IMG/VR virus record: IMGVR_UViG_2541047790_000014
Coordinates: 1 to 29,346 of that record
Direction: 5' to 3' (one strand)
DNA from: a virus
Taxonomy: Duplodnaviria; Heunggongvirae; Uroviricota; Caudoviricetes
Length of the DNA stretch: 29,346 nucleotides
A model generated the notes under the pieces. The model searched no databases. It was not told the origin of the DNA and saw only the letters and a program-made list of their open reading frames with translations. Below, piece after piece: positions 1,500-29,346 of the stretch; within the stretch, counting starts at the first letter, position 1; each line of letters opens with the position of its first letter. A program made the position numbers and the translations under genes.

Positions 1500-1958
1500 C
1501 ATCGCAATTTTCACATCACCGGGCAGTCATAAAACTCACCATAACGCTCTTCGTTGATGATGTACGTGATCACCAAAAATATCGCATCCGGACTAGTTCC
1601 ATCTTCATGCGTAGGTATCTGTTCATGCCTACCTGTCTGCAAATCCTAAAGATGAGATTTTAGAGTTTTGGGATATCTTTTTATCCTCAGTTCTCTATCC
1701 ATTCTGCAAACCAGTAACGAACCATCACCGTGTGATAGTGAGGCATCCGCTACGTTAAGCGCAGAGAAATGATGCAGTGGTGGGCGGATTGGATTGATGA
1801 AAAGGTGGTGTGACCCGCCTTAACAACTATCGAATATCACAAAACCTTGCAATCCAGTGCAAAGCTTTGTGTGCAAGAATATTTTCTCACCAACATCATG
1901 ACAACATTATTCTCTTAGTTAATTACATCGAAAAATCATACATAACCATATTAATTAA

Positions 1959-1985
1959 CAATCTGCGCCTTTTCGACGCAGATTT
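1959..1985. terminator. Putative terminator hairpin downstream of the tailspike gene
   Basis: Perfect 7-bp inverted repeat ATCTGCG / CGCAGAT with a 9-nt loop, flanked by AT-rich sequence, just past the tailspike stop at 2007. Confidence 0.35.
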
Positions 1986-2006
1986 CATATTGTTTTATGT
2001 TGAATA

Positions 2007-4394
2007 TCATATTTTATTTAAGTTATTCTTTTTTAATGTCATCTCTAGTTCTTCGATACGTCTTTCTATATTATCAATTCTCTCCCAGCATTGCTGAATT
2101 GATTTAACAATAGGTGGGATAAACTCATCGTAACCGAGTGAGTAAACATCATCCCCACCATTTTTCAAGTGATGCTGTAGCCCACCGAACTCAACACCTA
2201 ATTTTTCACACAGTTTCAATACGTCCTGTGCAATAAACCAGTGATGGTATCGTTGACGTTTTTTACTGCCGTCAGGAGTTTTCTGCACTACTTCAAGATA
2301 TTTTTCTTCGACATTCTCAATAGCTGATATAGTAATTCCATCAACATCTCGTTCTACTTTTTTTGGTACAATTCTTGTCTTTTCAATAACATCAATATAA
2401 TCATCACGCATATCCCAGCGACCATCGACAGGACGAAGCCCAAGGATAAATTCAATCCCCAGCAAAGTATCTCGGATATCTGTTTTATCACGCGCATCAG
2501 ATCTGTTTTGCACAGTTCCATATACATACGTCGTTGTGGAAGAATTGCCAAGCTGCACCTGATTACTTCCAGACACTCTTGCATCATTGCCAACAGTTGT
2601 TGTGTTGGTAAGTGATGATGTGCTTTCCCCTGATTGAGTTAATCTACCTGAATTATGTCCAATAGCCGTGTTTAATGCGCCGGTTGTATTTGTGACAAGA
2701 GAGCCAGACCCAATTGCAACGTTACTGCTTCCCGATGTTGTTCCTTTTAATGCCTGCTGTCCAACCGCAACATTATTATCACCCGTTGCTGCTATAAGTG
2801 CCATGTGACCAATAGAAACGGTAAATGAACCTAGCGTTTGAGTTTCACCGCATGCACCATAACCAATTACAACAACATTATCTGTAATTGTTGACTCGGT
2901 TGCCGCTCCAGCACCAATAACAACGCTTTCATTCCCGGCAAGATTCTTGCGCATTGCGAACATTCCAATGCCAACATTATCATGCCCAGTCCCTGTACCT
3001 GCTGCCTCCGCAGCACCAAGACAGTTTCCCGCTCTGTAGCCAACCATGGTGTTATTTGAACCAATAGAGAAGTCTCCGGCAAAAGAGCCTACGTATACAC
3101 TATTAGACTGTGAGTAATCTCCAGGATTTCCATTCGCCCGATATCCTACTGCAACTGTATAAATAGTATCTGGAGCCTCAGCCATGGCCTCAAAGCCAAC
3201 TCCAACGTTATATCTACCGCCCTTAACTTTTTCTCCTGCACCAAGTCCGAAGAATGAGTTATAGCTCCCGGTTGTTAGCCACTCGCCAGCAACAGAACCT
3301 ACAGCAGTGTTTCCTGTTCCAGTACATCGATACAAAGTCAGGAAGCCAACTCCGGTATTATTATTTCCTGAAATATTACTCATCAATGATTTTGACCCAA
3401 TGGCAGTATTGTTAACACCATCGGTCAGATCCTGTAACGCTCGCGGGCCAAATGCTGTATTATCGTAACCCTTTGGCGCTGTTGTTGGATCTGGTAACTC
3501 CGGGGTTAGTTTTTCACCACCGCCACCATTGGCACAAAGATTGTAAGATCGAATAAATTCAGCCACTGGCCCAAGTTTTAAATAACCATTGGCAATATTA
3601 ATTCTGACACTTACATTAACTGAGCTACCAGGAGCTTCTATTGTCCTGTCATCAACCCAGGTAAAACTCTGTGGTATCCCGTCATAAGTTAATGTCACAT
3701 CTCCTTTATCATTATAATTATAGAACAATGTATAACGCTCATTTATAGATTCAGAACCTGATGATCCTCCTCTCCTCCACCACTCTGCATTATCAAAAAT
3801 AAGTAATCCTGGACCATAATATTTTCCCTTCTGACCCAAGATCATAGGAGTCGATAATCGCCACCTTCCCTCTGGAACATATACATCGATCCCAGTTCTT
3901 TCTGCGTCTTTAAACGATTCATCACATAATAAAACACCACCTTCAACAGCACCAAATCCACGAACATCACCATTATCTCTCCATCGAGCCATTTGCAACT
4001 CAGGATACTTCTTAGCGCCATCAATGTCTTCTAATTGGTCCCGCAGCTGATCAGGATCATACTTCAGTACATTAGGAAAATAGAACTGCTGAGCACCGTA
4101 AGCATCATATACAGCCATAGAATGGCCTTGCACAGTTACGAACTTGGCAATCTGTCCGTTATATACAGGGTAACCAGCAGCGTTAAGGATGATTGGTTGT
4201 GAAACAGGAATGTGAGAACCATCTTCACTCTCTACATAAACCTGAATCTGGTTTTCAGGATTTACCGGGTCAGTGTCAATTTTACCGATATAAATTTTGC
4301 CATTAGCTACGGCTTTAAAAGAGCGAGCCATAGTGAAGAGTTGCGATGGCATCCCAATTACAACATTTGGGGTTATATTAGGCATATTAGTCAT
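2007..4394 (-). CDS. Tailspike protein: P22-gp9-like head-binding N-terminal domain, repeat-rich receptor-binding domain, C-terminal intramolecular chaperone (peptidase S74-like)
   Basis: N-terminal stretch [25 protein letters not shown]...[13 protein letters not shown]...LKYDPDQ closely resembles the P22 tailspike head-binding domain. The centre has many NTAIG/NVGVG-type repeats. The C-terminus has the Ser-Lys dyad context SDARDK typical of self-cleaving fibre chaperone domains. Start placed at MTNMPN (4394); the ORF extends to 4478 but that extension lacks an RBS. Confidence 0.85.
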
Positions 4395-4730
4395 CCTGTT
4401 TGAAAACTTAGAAATTGAATAAAAAGGAATGACTGTAGACAAAGATGCAAGTGTTTTGAAAAATAATCTTCTATCCATTTTAAATCATGCAACACAAACA
4501 AAACGATTATTTTACAACGTGCACGAATCTTGATCAACAGGCATATATTTTAATTGCTGAATACGTCACTTAAAAATGACAAGTACTACTTTTATTCCTA
4601 TCGTCCATGATTTTAATTTTCAAATATTATTAAATAACAATTCCTATTTATAATATCTGTCATTTAATTTGCTCCAGATACAAGTAATCGCTGCAGCATG
4701 ACTGCAGTGATACATAATCAATCATACAAC

Positions 4731-4747
4731 AAGACCACCGTGGTCTT
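4731..4747. promoter_or_regulatory. Mnt-operator-like palindrome AAGACCACCGTGGTCTT
   Basis: Perfect 17-bp palindrome about 60 bp upstream of mnt, resembling the symmetric P22 mnt operator (GGTCCACGGTGGACC-type, from memory). A GATAAT -10-like hexamer lies about 20 bp downstream. Confidence 0.5.
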
Positions 4748-4809
4748 ATTGAGGATGCAACCAGCAGATAATAAGATGCCGATCCACTCACAAGAGCGAG
4801 GCATCAAGA

Positions 4810-5061
4810 ATGGGAAGAGATGACCCGCAATTTAATCTGCGGCTACCTTACGAATTAAAGGAAAAACTAAAACAGCGAGCCAAATCCAATGGCCGCTCTC
4901 TTAATTCAGAATTAGTTCAGATAGTGACTGATGCTGTATCAAAGCCATCCAAAATTTCAGGCTATCGAGACGATGCGGAACGCATCGCTGATGAGCAGTC
5001 CGAACTTGTTAAGAAGATGGTGTTTGATACGCTGAAGGATTTGTACAAAAAAACCACCTGA
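4810..5061 (+). CDS. mnt: Mnt repressor (ribbon-helix-helix, Arc/MetJ family)
   Basis: 83-aa protein MGRDDPQFNLRLPYELKEKLKQRAKSNGRSLNSELVQIV...ELVKKMVFDTLKDLYKKTT is near-identical to my recollection of P22 Mnt. RBS GAGG 8 nt upstream. Confidence 0.9.
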   Translation: MGRDDPQFNLRLPYELKEKLKQRAKSNGRSLNSELVQIVTDAVSKPSKISGYRDDAERIADEQSELVKKMVFDTLKDLYKKTT

Positions 5062-5078
5062 CGGTGGGTTAATTTTTG
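5051..5078 (+). terminator. Rho-independent terminator at the end of mnt
   Basis: Hairpin AACCACC-TGAC-GGTGGGTT followed by TTAATTTTTG. The mnt stop codon lies in the loop. Confidence 0.5.
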
Positions 5079-5080
5079 CA

Positions 5081-5125
5081 TTTACCTGGGCCATATTGAC
5101 TACTTATAAAATGAGATCAATATTT
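5081..5125 (+). promoter_or_regulatory. Putative sigma70 promoter for the downstream small gene
   Basis: TTGACT (5096-5101), 17-bp spacer, AATATT; an overlapping alternative is TTTACC-N18-TATAAA. About 40 bp upstream of the RBS of the 5161 gene. Confidence 0.35.
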
Positions 5126-5160
5126 AATCGCCCAATAACGGGTGTATGTTGAGGTATATC

Positions 5161-5406
5161 ATGGCGAAAAAACCAGGTGAAAACACAGGAAAAACGGCGG
5201 AATATACCAAGAGGTTGGCCCACGCGGCGGTAAGAAAGACAATTTTGCCACCGTCAAGGACAACGAAAGGCTTCCGCCAACAACAAAGCCAGGTCATGGC
5301 TGGGTATTGGATAAGCGAACTCCAGACAGCAAAAAGTAATACTCAAGCCGGGTCACTCCGGCTTTTTGATATGTCGCTCGCAGAACTCAACAAGCCTGCT
5401 CATTAA
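5161..5406 (+). CDS. Hypothetical small basic protein (accessory locus, sieA-equivalent position)
   Basis: 81-aa ORF starting MAKKPGENTGK with RBS GAGG at 5151-5154 and a promoter-like sequence upstream. The track ORF starts earlier at 5146 without an RBS. No recognisable family. Confidence 0.4.
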   Translation: MAKKPGENTGKTAEYTKRLAHAAVRKTILPPSRTTKGFRQQQSQVMAGYWISELQTAKSNTQAGSLRLFDMSLAELNKPAH

Positions 5407-5718
5407 GTAGCAGTAAGTCTCGTTGGCTCTTCCTGGTTCAACATCAACGCCGACCCTTGAGCAGATATCGAATGCCATGTGAGCGCACTCATGGGCAATA
5501 GTAGATAGTTTGCCATTGAACACGCCTATCACATGCAAAACACCATTCTCGCTGCTCATTGTATGAGACGCTCCGTTGGCGTCCGAGTCATGCACGTCAA
5601 CGCCAAGTTTTTGATGCAGGCGTTGCCATTCTGGAAAGTCTCTACAAAACACAATTGTACCGCTCTCAAAGAGCGGAACGAGCATCTTTGGTACGTTTCC
5701 AATGTTAACTTTTTTCAT
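5353..5718 (-). CDS. Hypothetical protein with HExxH motif (possible small zinc metallopeptidase-like protein)
   Basis: 121-aa ORF from MKKVNIGNV, containing HECAH. The longer track ORF (start 5871) has no RBS. The 3' end overlaps the convergent 5161 gene by 54 bp. Family not recognised. Confidence 0.4.
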   Translation of the reverse strand: MKKVNIGNVPKMLVPLFESGTIVFCRDFPEWQRLHQKLGVDVHDSDANGASHTMSSENGVLHVIGVFNGKLSTIAHECAHMAFDICSRVGVDVEPGRANETYCYLMSRLVEFCERHIKKPE

Positions 5719-5755
5719 GGTATCCTGCTCAAAACTAAGGAGGTTGGAGGTTGGT

Positions 5756-6085
5756 GTGCTTGAATGGTTTCTGTTGGCTGCATTAGTCGTTTCTGGTTGG
5801 GTGTATGAGTATCGAATGCACTCTCTAACAAAAAAAATAGGAATTCTAGAAAACGAATATTGGGCTCTCAAATCCTCACTGGAACGTGAGCAAGGAGACT
5901 TAAAAATCTATCTGTCTAGCATTGAGCGTTCTATAGAGAGCCTAGAGGATAAAGTTAATCGTATAAAGAATGAGGATATTCATGATATTAAGGACGATAT
6001 ATCCTTCTTAAAATCTTGGTTGAAAAATGTTGGTAAAATTGCCACATCAACACGAGATAAGCTCAATCCATCCATGGATGATTAA
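5756..6085 (+). CDS. Hypothetical membrane-anchored coiled-coil protein
   Basis: GTG start with GGAGG 5 nt upstream. N-terminal hydrophobic helix (FLLAALVVSGWVY) then a charged heptad-like region (LENEYWALKSSLEREQGDLKIYLSSIERSIESLEDKVNRIK). DNA is AT-rich relative to the flanking structural genes. Confidence 0.5.
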   Translation: MLEWFLLAALVVSGWVYEYRMHSLTKKIGILENEYWALKSSLEREQGDLKIYLSSIERSIESLEDKVNRIKNEDIHDIKDDISFLKSWLKNVGKIATSTRDKLNPSMDD

Positions 6086-26720: not shown

Positions 26721-28097
26721 TCATACGTCAGCCCCTTGTGCATATCGTCTGCCACGTGCAGCGGGTGCATTTGATGTTGTGCAAATCTGTCTGGCTTCAT
26801 CCTGGTCACATGCAACAAAGTGTCCGTTGCAGAACCGCTGGTAAACCGTACCAAGCGAGCCAAAGCGGTTTTTCGTCACGATGATTTCAGCAAATGGCGC
26901 GGCGCTACTGTTCTCGTCATATACCGCTTCCCGATAGAGCATGATGATTGAGTCTGCGTCCTGCTCAATGCTTCCTGAATCACGCAAATCTGCGTTTGTC
27001 GGGCGTTTGTTTGGTCGCTTCTCAACATCGCGCGAAAGCTGACTCAGGGAGATAACAGGCGTTTTCAGGTCTTTCGCCATCGCCTTCAGGCTTCCGGAGA
27101 TGTGAGCAATTGCGAGGTCGTTCCGGTCTGCTTTCGGCTTCTCAATCAGGCCAAGATAATCCGCCATGATGAGTGACAGATTTGGATTTTCCTGTTTATG
27201 CCGTTCTGCGATTGAGCGTATTTCTTCGACCGATAACCGCGAGGCATCGACTACCCATACATCCAAATCTGCAAGCTGACTCATGCCGTTAGCAACACGC
27301 GCCCAGCCTTCGTCATCCATCGATGCAGGATTTCGCAGTACGCTAACCGACATCCTCCCGGCGTTGGCAATGCTTCGCTCTGCAATCTGCAATGCGCTCA
27401 TTTCCATTGAGAAAATCAATACCCCGCGCCGGACGTCAGAACCAGGAATAACGCGGCTTGCAACGCCTTCGGCAATCTTCAGCGCCAGTTCGGTTTTCCC
27501 CATACCAGGACGAGCAGCGATTATCACCAGGTCTTCTGCGTTCATCCCTCCGGTGATAGCGTCAAGTTCTTCGATTCCGGTCTTCAGGGTATCTGACTCT
27601 TCTCCGTTCCTCAGACGCCTGTCAAGCGTGTCAGTGTAGTCAGTGATGATTTCCCCTAACCGTACAGGTTTAACCTCGTCACGGGGCTTTCTGATGGCTG
27701 AAAGACGCTTTACAAGCTCGTCCATCGCCTGACTCGATGTATCGATGGTTCCGCTCTGAATTGGTTCACGCATTTCATCCATGATTTCCAGCACCAGACG
27801 GCGGTGATAGTTATCCGCGACCATTCCGGCATATCCCTTCAGGTTTGCGGCGCTCGGGCAGTTTTTGCTGGTCATCAGGATTGACGTGAAATGCTCCTCT
27901 CCGCACGCCTCGGCAACCATCAGCGCGTCGATTAGGTTTCTGTTTCTCGCCTGCTTGCGGATAACCTCGAAGGCTTTCCGGTAGAGCGGAATTGAAAACG
28001 CTTCCGGCTCAAGCGTTGCCAGAACGTCACTGGCAGTTGGTGTTAATCCACCAATCAGCAGGCCACCGATAACGCTCGCTTCGATATCCTGTCTCAT
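26721..28097 (-). CDS. Replicative DNA helicase, DnaB family (P22 gene 12-like)
   Basis: 458 aa with Walker [16 protein letters not shown] and a DnaB-like N-terminal domain; ATGA overlap with the O-like gene. Confidence 0.9.
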
Positions 28098-29041
28098 GCA
28101 ATCCCCCTGTCTGCAAACTTCCCTTCCCGTACTCCCGTTAACGAATCTTCCCTCAACAGGTAATCAAAATCAGCCGTCCAGCCCGTGTCGTTGTCTCCGA
28201 AGTAAAACGGCTTGGCCTGATGCACAAACGCCCTGACATACGCTCTGAAACCGTCCACGTTTGGCGTTTTCAGTTGCGGGATGATTTTCTTCAGGCGGCG
28301 TTTGCGTTTCTCGTTGACCGCAACAGCGTGTGGCAGTCTGTCACCGACTTCGGTGTTGTAGGCGTTCAGGAAGGATTCGTAGTCGATTCGTTCTGCCTTG
28401 CGACGTTCAGGTTTAACCTGCCCATCACCTCCCCCATTGGGGGGTAGGGGGGTATTATTTATATTCTTGTTAATACCTTCTTGTTCATGATGTGCGGTTG
28501 TTTGTGCGGCTTCATGTGCGCTTTCATGTGCGGCATGTACGCTGAAAGCCGCGCCATTACTGGCTTCATCATGTGCGGCGTCATGTGCGGTTGTTTGTGC
28601 GGCTTCATGTGCGGGTGAATTGTCCATTTTTTGAGCATATTCATGGTAATTTGTGATGGTGATCACACGACCTTTTTGCTTCTCTCCATCAATGGAGATC
28701 ATCCCCTCTTTCACAAAAACCTGAAGCATCCGCTCAACCTGATCACGGCTTGCTGGCTTGCCATGCCTGTCGCATAACTGAAGACCTAAATCAGCTGCTG
28801 TCACAACCAGTTGACCGGGTTGCAGATGCCATTCATGACCTTTGAAATTCGCTTTGTATGGCTTTCTGGCGGCATTCAGGAGAAGGTTTTCCCACAGGGT
28901 GCGAAGATAAACATCTTTCGACCATGACTGTTTCAGAATGCTCCGGTACAACGGAATGTAACCAGTTTTCTGGTTCTCCATCCTGTTGCTCCTGCGCTCG
29001 TGTGCGGCGCTGAAATCGTAGATTTTTGCTGTATTGCTCAT
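28094..29041 (-). CDS. Replication initiator, lambda O-like N-terminus, with internal His/Ala-rich repeat linker
   Basis: N-terminus [10 protein letters not shown] resembles lambda O (MTNTAKILNF, from memory). The central linker [16 protein letters not shown]...[14 protein letters not shown] is encoded by DNA repeats. Confidence 0.75.
28445..28620. repeat. Iteron-like direct repeats plus adjacent AT-rich segment inside the initiator gene: candidate replication origin
   Basis: About eight copies of (T)CATGTGCGG / TTGTGCGG, including a 30-bp unit TGTGCGGTTGTTTGTGCGGCTTCATGTGCG present twice. Flanked by ATTATTTATATTCTTGTTAATA at 28454-28476. Confidence 0.45.
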
Positions 29042-29205
29042 AACTACCTGCCTTGACGAAAGACCTTAAGAACATCGTTAAACTGACTTACGGATATGTC
29101 TTCTTTGAGCAGCTTTTCCAGTAACCGTCTCATTTAAACCGTCTTTCGCCTCCCTTTCCTGTTTCCGATACTAATGTCCATTTTCGCAGTAAAGGGACAT
29201 TTAAG

Positions 29206-29346
29206 ATGAATGCACGAAAAGCGGTACTGGCAGACAATCCGGAATTGATCCTGCGTGTGCTACAACTGAGATTTGACGAGTCACTGTCGTACCCGCGCAT
29301 TTCTGCGCAGACCGGTATCAGCAAAACCGCCATTTTTTCTCTGGTG
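29206..29346 (+). CDS. Partial CDS (runs off the window end): N-terminus of an HTH protein of unknown family
   Basis: ATG at 29206 with RBS AAGGGA 8 nt upstream; MNARKAVLADNPELILRVLQLRFDESLSYPRISAQTGISKTAIFSLV contains a sigma70-region-4 / transposase-type HTH pattern. Confidence 0.3.
   Translation, partial: MNARKAVLADNPELILRVLQLRFDESLSYPRISAQTGISKTAIFSLV

Follow-up and report, generated by a model that had tools for sequence, protein, structure and literature searches.

A probable replication origin formed by 12-nt repeats within the O-like initiator gene of a P22-like prophage

We analysed a stretch of 29,346 nucleotides (nt) from a Caudoviricetes virus (positions 1 to 29,346 of IMG/VR record IMGVR_UViG_2541047790_000014; hereafter the window), the minus strand of which carries a gene for an O-like replication initiator followed by a gene for a DnaB-type helicase. 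Inside the initiator gene, an earlier reading of the letters alone (the original prediction) had placed iteron-like direct repeats with an adjoining AT-rich segment at 28445–28620. We propose that this region is likely to be the replication origin of a P22-like (CUS-3-type) prophage, located inside its own initiator gene as in lambda and P22, and that the repeats are very probably the sites to which the initiator binds. The full element probably extends slightly past the earlier coordinates, to 28428, and takes in a C6/G5 palindrome (Table 1). The assignment of the gene as an O-like initiator holds, because the protein contains a Phage_rep_O domain (PF04492) at amino acids (aa) 20–132 (expect value (E) 3.4e-15; 56.8 bits against a cut-off of 28.7), and the helicase encoded next to it is 90% identical to gp12 of P22.

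Eight 12-nt units that fit the pattern nCCGCACAWnnn lie on the O gene strand; they share a single reading frame and are arranged as two clusters of four, which occupy codons 143–186 directly after the DNA-binding domain (Pfam, aa 20–132; modelled to about residue 136). These units are the predicted direct repeats, and the '(T)CATGTGCGG' unit given for them is the plus-strand reading of CCGCACATGA on the gene strand. What had been described as a duplicated 30-mer is an exact duplicate of 31 nt with one copy in each cluster (28490–28520 is identical to 28583–28613). Consistent with this arrangement, a period of 12 was found by Tandem Repeats Finder and by a second repeat search, and the self-similarity of the sequence reached 0.55 at a lag of 12, compared with 0.22–0.32 at neighbouring lags. 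The window contains ten CCGCACA matches, and seven of them are confined to 124 nt (28491–28614). Over the whole window this heptamer is mildly enriched (10 occurrences against 4.5 expected; 1 of 100 shuffles reaches 10) and CGCACAW shows no enrichment, so that the signal of the array lies in clustering and 12-nt phasing, not in a global count. An extra CCGCACA near the 5′ end of O (29001–29007) is not kept in relatives and was put down to chance. A repeat search of the replication region revealed no second multi-copy repeat family.

For comparison, we gathered relatives of the N-terminal domain from two annotated phages (Klebsiella 2b LV-2017 and Yersinia vB_YenM_210.17), 14 enterobacterial genomes and about 220 IMG/VR contigs (the best 80 per query; 546 IMG/VR hits in all), which were de-duplicated to 130 distinct sequences with 65–100% amino-acid identity. 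In the 128 sequences with the standard array length, position 3 of the unit falls on a codon third base; 873 of 880 units have C there, while the codon may specify P, A, S, G, T, D or other residues. Elsewhere in these genes, C accounts for 29% of four-fold third positions. In the adjacent domain the silent sites are saturated, with 1 of 27 four-fold columns invariant and a pairwise third-base identity of 0.32–0.55. The variable parts of the unit are the first base of the position-3 codon and the whole of the fourth codon, with more than ten residues occurring at each, and the alanine codon is uniform per lineage, being either GCA in every unit or GCG (or GAG, encoding glutamate) in every unit. 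Because selection at the protein level would give the opposite pattern of constraint, the conserved object is, by this comparison of sequences, the DNA motif CCGCRCAT rather than the peptide.

The base at core position 6 is the same in all units of a lineage, A in some lineages and G in others, and it covaries with residue 100 of the initiator. Asp is found with a CGCACA core in 49 sequences and His with a CGCGCA or CGAGCA core in 81, with no exception among the 130. In the AlphaFold2 model, the N-terminal domain (residues 31–136; predicted local distance difference test (pLDDT) 64–86) contains helices at residues 82–88 and 99–111 and a hairpin at residues 115–129; Asp100 is at the first turn of helix 99–111, the second helix of a helix-turn-helix and the predicted recognition helix, after which the β-hairpin follows. 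A pairing of Asp with A·T and of His with G·C is chemically plausible. In the alignment columns that separate residue 100 from the repeats, the association with the state of the core is imperfect, and column 121, which lies beside the repeats, shows all four combinations of residue and core; physical linkage alone is therefore insufficient to explain the covariation. On an unweighted pair group method with arithmetic mean (UPGMA) tree built without the Asp100 column, the Asp/His state switches at least three times. Because this tree is crude, the covariation of Asp/His with A/G is suggestive of protein–DNA recognition rather than proof of it.

Downstream of the units in the direction of transcription, where an AT-rich stretch had been predicted, the sequence at 28453–28486 comprises 34 nt of about 79% A+T (about 21% G+C). 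This stretch contains the least stable 30-mer of the O and helicase genes together (rank 1 of 2291) and the fourth lowest non-overlapping stability minimum in the whole window. In the 130 relatives it has a mean A+T content of 77%, and its first 25 nt or so are conserved.

The original prediction saw in this layout a mirror of lambda, and the comparison supports that view. In lambda (NC_001416), four annotated iterons lie at O codons 117–145, just past the N-terminal domain, which is the position of the repeats here, and they are followed by an A-rich stretch and then by the palindrome ATTCGTCAGAGAATTCTGGCGAAT. Both systems have an initiator of the Phage_rep_O family, an in-gene array of sites right after the N-terminal DNA-binding domain that also encodes the interdomain linker, and an AT-rich, purine-skewed stretch downstream (about 40 bp in lambda ori, 34 nt here). 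In both, the N-terminal domain together with the iterons makes up a specificity cassette that can be separated from the C-terminal, partner-binding domain, and in the Klebsiella and Yersinia relatives the cassette is joined to a lambda-type C terminus with the ATTCGTCAGAGAATTCTGGCGAAT palindrome. By contrast, lambda has four dyad-symmetric sites of 18 bp, whereas the array described here has eight non-palindromic 12-nt units in two clusters with a conserved spacer; the two N-terminal domains are barely alignable (E 0.005 over 65 aa); and lambda P loads the DnaB of the host, whereas here the partner is a phage DnaB-type helicase.

The right-hand side of the element corresponds to that of P22 (NC_002371), in which the annotated rep_origin (32840–32984, in gene 18) is made up of TCGGTAAAAC-type repeats followed by an AT-rich stretch and a terminal ACCCCCTTACCCCCTAAAGGGGG. 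Gene order is the same in the two phages, the C-terminal domain of the initiator is 58% identical to the C terminus of P22 gp18 (E 4e-51), and the right ends are homologous, each with an AT-rich stretch and a palindrome (C5/G5 in P22 and C6/G5 here). The N-terminal domain, however, is unrelated in sequence, giving no alignment with the N terminus of P22 gp18, and the dyad-symmetric repeats of about 20 bp of the TCGGTAAAAC type are not present here. The O gene is a hybrid, in which a different origin-specificity cassette has been joined to a P22-type right half.

In gene 18 of phage L, six imprecise 11-bp repeats (TGTCCAACGGA) have been proposed as the origin (PMC8022706). That case also involves a P22-like phage with short (11–12 bp) in-gene direct repeats and an origin inferred from sequence only; it differs in the sequence of the repeat and in the initiator allele, and no two-cluster layout was reported. 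On the basis of these proposed repeats, dyad symmetry is not universal among gene 18/O alleles. The Shiga toxin (Stx) phages 933W and P27 have a lambda-type ori with six rather than four iterons and an O linker that is 13 aa longer, and their extra distal iterons are needed even though their binding is weak (PMC7466680). As in those phages, a gain of in-gene iterons lengthens the O linker (by 4 aa per unit here) and distal iterons are accessory; the difference is that 933W and P27 have true lambda-type iterons and O/P proteins, which have been studied biochemically. Iteron plasmids (pPS10, R6K, RK2 and P1) differ in having a Rep_3/TrfA-type initiator, iterons of 17–22 bp and DnaA boxes beside the array, whereas Phage_rep_O is the sole initiator domain found in the present protein and the units, at 12 nt, are not of the iteron-plasmid type. 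No DnaA-box-like sequence was seen on reading 28400–28700, for which no dedicated DnaA-box scan was run.

Across the 130 relatives, the layout keeps the 12-nt register, with three or four units, a 33-nt spacer, three or four further units and then GAACAAGAAGGTAATAACAA; the register of cluster I is likewise preserved. The two clusters are nearly always equal in size (of the 130, 67 are 3+3 and 59 are 4+4), and rarer arrays are 4+3, 1+3, arrays with one extra unit and spacerless single clusters of 3, 4 or 5 units. The comparison of copy number that had been proposed thus gives a range of 3 to 9 units per array, and the linker varies in length, as had been anticipated: each unit gained or lost changes it by four residues, and the encoded peptide can shrink from 43 to 12 residues. 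In single-cluster variants, the AT-proximal units of cluster II are joined to the one or more units with which cluster I begins, and the common Escherichia coli/Shigella form is the expected product of a 93-nt deletion between the 31-nt duplicates. Concerted evolution of the clusters, in which each unit of cluster I would match its counterpart in cluster II of the same genome, was considered and set aside as a general rule, with an intragenomic identity at variable positions of 0.56 against 0.53–0.55 for orthologous clusters and 0.43 for cross comparisons, and a signal in only some lineages. Homologues that lack the repeats, which would have spoken against the prediction, did not appear among the roughly 250 examined; all have at least three units, including those of CUS-3, JEP4, Gally, HF4s, Kapi1 and the Klebsiella and Yersinia phages.

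The N-terminal domain, the repeats and the AT-rich stretch are inherited as one cassette. Conservation of the DNA falls off 25–33 nt past the last unit, and BLAST comparison with other phages places a sharp mosaic joint at gene nt 574–584, within the AT-rich stretch or at its end: gene nt 48–584 are common to the Klebsiella and Yersinia phages, at 75–80% identity, and nt 574–948 to the P22-like phages ST104 (gene 18), HK544, Nil2 and HK446, at about 95% nucleotide identity. In Klebsiella 2b LV-2017 and Yersinia vB_YenM_210.17, the cassette is followed by a lambda-type O C terminus (SSENSGESSD...KWGTAEDL) with the ori palindrome of lambda, and a P-like gene of 230–245 aa takes the place of the helicase gene; by their sequences, these two phages represent a natural domain swap at the origin. 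Several further, unrelated C-terminal types are joined at the same point in the protein database. A more distant relative (L243; IMGVR_UViG_2568526730_000009, locus at about 1860–2050) has an N-terminal domain that is 50% identical and units that differ (CCCGATGAACCA and TTCGATAAACCA, 12-nt, 2+2); the layout is the same, with the same spacer core, an AT-rich stretch containing a duplicated AACAAGAAGGTAGTT and a P22-type C terminus. L243 seems to share the origin design but to belong to a separate specificity class. In the HK97 gp54/ST104 allele, the equivalent place is occupied by TTAGCYAA/GCTAAT repeats. That alternative alleles carry their own repeats at the same position fits a published view in which the iterons bound by each O/gene 18 allele lie inside the coding region of that allele (PMC8022706).

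The spacer between the clusters is itself conserved. In 126 relatives, the silent positions of its core, GCCAGTAATGGCGCGGCT, each carry one base in 83–98% of sequences, and the core shows no covariation with iteron type, being present in L243 despite the different iterons there. The reverse complement of GCCAGTAATGGCGCGGCT resembles a G-type unit plus one extra C. No consensus for IHF, Fis or DnaA was recognisable in the spacer by eye, and no formal test was made. A single terminator-like hit in the array (non-coding strand, 28504–28521) is within chance expectation and was not retained.

We propose the following model. The N-terminal, winged-helix-like domain would bind the 12-bp units (core CCGCACAT) in both clusters to form a complex like the O-some of lambda, which, by analogy with lambda, would strain and open the adjoining 34-bp AT-rich stretch. 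The gp18-type C-terminal domain would then bring the phage DnaB-type helicase to the opened DNA, as homology with genes 18 and 12 of P22 suggests, and host primase and polymerase would take over after helicase recruitment. Because the sites lie within coding sequence, they also specify the His/Ala-rich peptide between the two domains. The low-complexity, His/Ala-rich linker that had been predicted for the repeats falls within residues 140–216, whose codons take in the repeats, the AT-rich stretch and the palindrome and which are predicted by AlphaFold2 to be disordered (pLDDT <50), consistent with an interdomain linker. A more specific version of the model, which we offer tentatively, is that this origin family departs from lambda in the geometry of recognition, that winged-helix domains bind the 12-bp units as monomers or head to tail, that Asp100 reads A and His reads G at position 6, and that the equal clusters flank in GCCAGTAATGGCGCGGCT a possible site for a second, perhaps host, factor.

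Several observations weigh against this interpretation or limit its reach. The 12-nt units follow one another head to tail as direct repeats and have no dyad symmetry, and a search for inverted repeats within the array found none. The iterons of lambda and P22 are palindromic and bind dimers, so the stoichiometry and geometry of the complex do not simply carry over from lambda, and it need not resemble the O-some in detail. The AT-rich stretch is short, at about 34 bp. The model of the N-terminal domain is of moderate confidence (pLDDT 64–86), and the matches returned by Foldseek are weak (E >0.1), all of them winged-helix regulators; a Protein Data Bank search returned no sequence relative of the domain, and we do not claim a structural homologue. 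Asp100 is also not the only position to follow the repeats, as residue 82 (column 62), in the first turn of the preceding helix, likewise partitions cleanly with iteron type and alignment column 98 (residue 118) nearly does so. With few independent switches, part of the covariation signal could reflect clade structure. Finally, an IS66-family element separates O from cro and cII, and for this reason the present copy of the prophage may be impaired in replication and may no longer fire, although its origin sequence is intact.

Other explanations for the repeats were weighed against an origin role. The repeats might matter as protein only, by providing a flexible or metal-binding His/Ala-rich linker, with the periodicity of the DNA as a by-product. 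The encoded low-complexity peptide is indeed predicted to be disordered and 'AH' is its most constant dipeptide, but the constraint runs in the reverse direction, with a silent third base that is 99% C next to coding positions that are free to vary. Moreover, replacement of Ala by Glu (GCG to GAG) is tolerated while the surrounding bases are kept, the synonymous choice between GCA and GCG is uniform per gene and follows the identity of a residue in the DNA-binding domain, and the peptide can be cut to little more than a quarter of its length, as noted above. We regard this account as highly improbable. Much the same can be said of the idea that the main role of the repeats and the AT-rich stretch is that of a 'boundary sequence', a recombination joint at which N- and C-terminal modules are swapped. 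Mosaic breakpoints do fall within 25–33 nt past the last unit in many lineages, and the 93-nt deletion between the 31-nt duplicates has occurred; recombination at shared sequence, however, is a consequence of conservation and not the reason for it, and the covariation between the core and the recognition helix, together with the allele-specific repeats at the same place, would be left unexplained. Such a joint is in any case compatible with, and secondary to, an origin role, and as the main function of the region it seems very unlikely.

It is also unlikely, to a lesser degree, that the units bind O mainly for control (autoregulation, titration or handcuffing, as in iteron plasmids), with opening elsewhere, or that the origin is confined to one cluster and the other has a regulatory role. 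The equal clusters (3+3 or 4+4 in 126 of the 130) and the conserved non-iteron spacer recall arrays that combine origin and control; many prophages retain one cluster of 3–5 units, which makes half of the array dispensable; and the two extra distal iterons of the lambda-type Stx phages are needed despite weak binding (PMC7466680). Against a control role, the replication region contains no other repeat family and no DNA of comparable instability, the array abuts the AT-rich stretch and the palindrome as it does in the origins of lambda and P22, and a promoter search found no promoter-like site in or beside the array to regulate. An origin that the initiator recognizes through these repeats remains the reading that we favour.

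The remaining features are consistent with a P22-like replication module (Table 1). The O-like protein matches phrog_345 ('replication initiation O-like', E 6.5e-100) and is 98.5% identical to the product of CUS-3 gene O, and the gene is 98–99% identical in CUS-3, JEP4, Gally, HF4s and about 50 Stx2a-converting phages. RefSeq usually annotates O as a 295-aa form that begins MENQK (28981). The N terminus of the longer open reading frame (ORF) (29011–29041, minus strand) is similar to MTNTAKILNF of lambda O, and this similarity suggests that O truly starts at the upstream ATG (29041). In lambda O, the N terminus is a ClpX recognition signal, and the O-like protein may, like lambda O, be labile to ClpXP. 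The P22 gp18-type C-terminal domain is presumed to recruit the helicase, the gene for which begins in overlap with the O stop codon.

Table 1 Features of the proposed origin and its genes (window coordinates)
Feature	Coordinates	Strand	Basis
O-like replication initiator gene, 315 aa	28094..29041	-	ORF list, Pfam, PHROG, CUS-3 gene O identity
Coding region of N-terminal DNA-binding domain, about aa 21-136, predicted winged-helix-like	28634..28981	-	AlphaFold2
Codon of Asp100 (residue 80 of the 295-aa form), candidate specificity residue	28742..28744	-	Asp/His vs A/G covariation
Iteron cluster I, four 12-nt units: CCCGCACATGAA, GCCGCACAAACA, ACCGCACATGAC, GCCGCACATGAT	28568..28615	-	
Spacer between clusters, 33 nt	28535..28567	-	Conserved core GCCAGTAATGGCGCGGCT and degenerate unit
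Spacer core GCCAGTAATGGCGCGGCT	28547-28564	-	Silent-site conservation
Degenerate out-of-phase unit AGCGTACAT	28535-28543	-	Inside spacer
Iteron cluster II, four units: GCCGCACATGAA, AGCGCACATGAA, GCCGCACAAACA, ACCGCACATCAT; adjoins AT-rich stretch	28487..28534	-	
AT-rich, purine-skewed stretch GAACAAGAAGGTATTAACAAGAATATAAATAATA, candidate DNA-unwinding element	28453..28486	-	Stability ranking, position
C6/G5 inverted repeat CCCCCCTACCCCCCAATGGGGGAGG, closes the origin, start of P22-type C-terminal module	28428..28452	-	P22 homology
Coding region of C-terminal domain, about aa 217-315, P22 gp18 type	28094..28393	-	P22 gp18 identity
DnaB-type replicative helicase gene, 458 aa	26721..28097	-	Pfam DnaB_C E 9e-78, DnaB E 4.5e-13

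The other genes of the window are also P22-like and include those for a tailspike, a DNA-transfer protein, a portal, a Q-like antiterminator and NinB. The AT-richest and least stable DNA of the window is in the tailspike gene and its flanks (1900–6000), with 30-mer stability minima at about 1930, 2008, 3355, 3706, 4459, 4627, 5100, 5824 and 5962; a low-GC receptor-binding/moron region that was acquired horizontally is the probable explanation. Upstream of O, the end of an IS66-family element occupies 29110–29346 on the plus strand, with the start of its tnpA accessory gene at ATG 29206. At 29124, which is 83 bp upstream of the start codon of O, the sequence ceases to be homologous to CUS-3 and Stx2a phages, and the insertion cuts the small ORF that normally precedes O, separating the O–helicase operon from cro, cII and pR.

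The 301-nt origin segment (28400–28700) is present in 286 of 5426 complete E. coli genomes (about 5%), and related cassettes of N-terminal domain, repeats and AT-rich stretch occur in Klebsiella, Yersinia, Salmonella and other enterobacterial prophages. A literature search found no paper that links this repeat, CUS-3, Kapi1 or HF4s with iterons. The principle of an in-gene origin is textbook knowledge, and we found no description of this widespread E. coli K1/Stx2a-phage allele; only the Asp/His–A/G rule and the spacer element go beyond expectation.

Conceptually, then, the finding only extends the lambda paradigm, with the covariation of Asp/His and A/G as an unusually clean and testable prediction of recognition. 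CUS-3-like K1 phages and many Stx2a-converting phages carry the module, and knowledge of its origin and likely specificity residue would help to predict replication incompatibility and cross-activation between co-resident prophages. Knowledge of the origin would also help to interpret differences in the replication of Stx phages, and hence in toxin gene dosage, and to build minimal phage-derived replicons. If the rule of one residue for one base is true, the origin specificity of enterobacterial prophages could become predictable from sequence and could be re-programmed by a single substitution.

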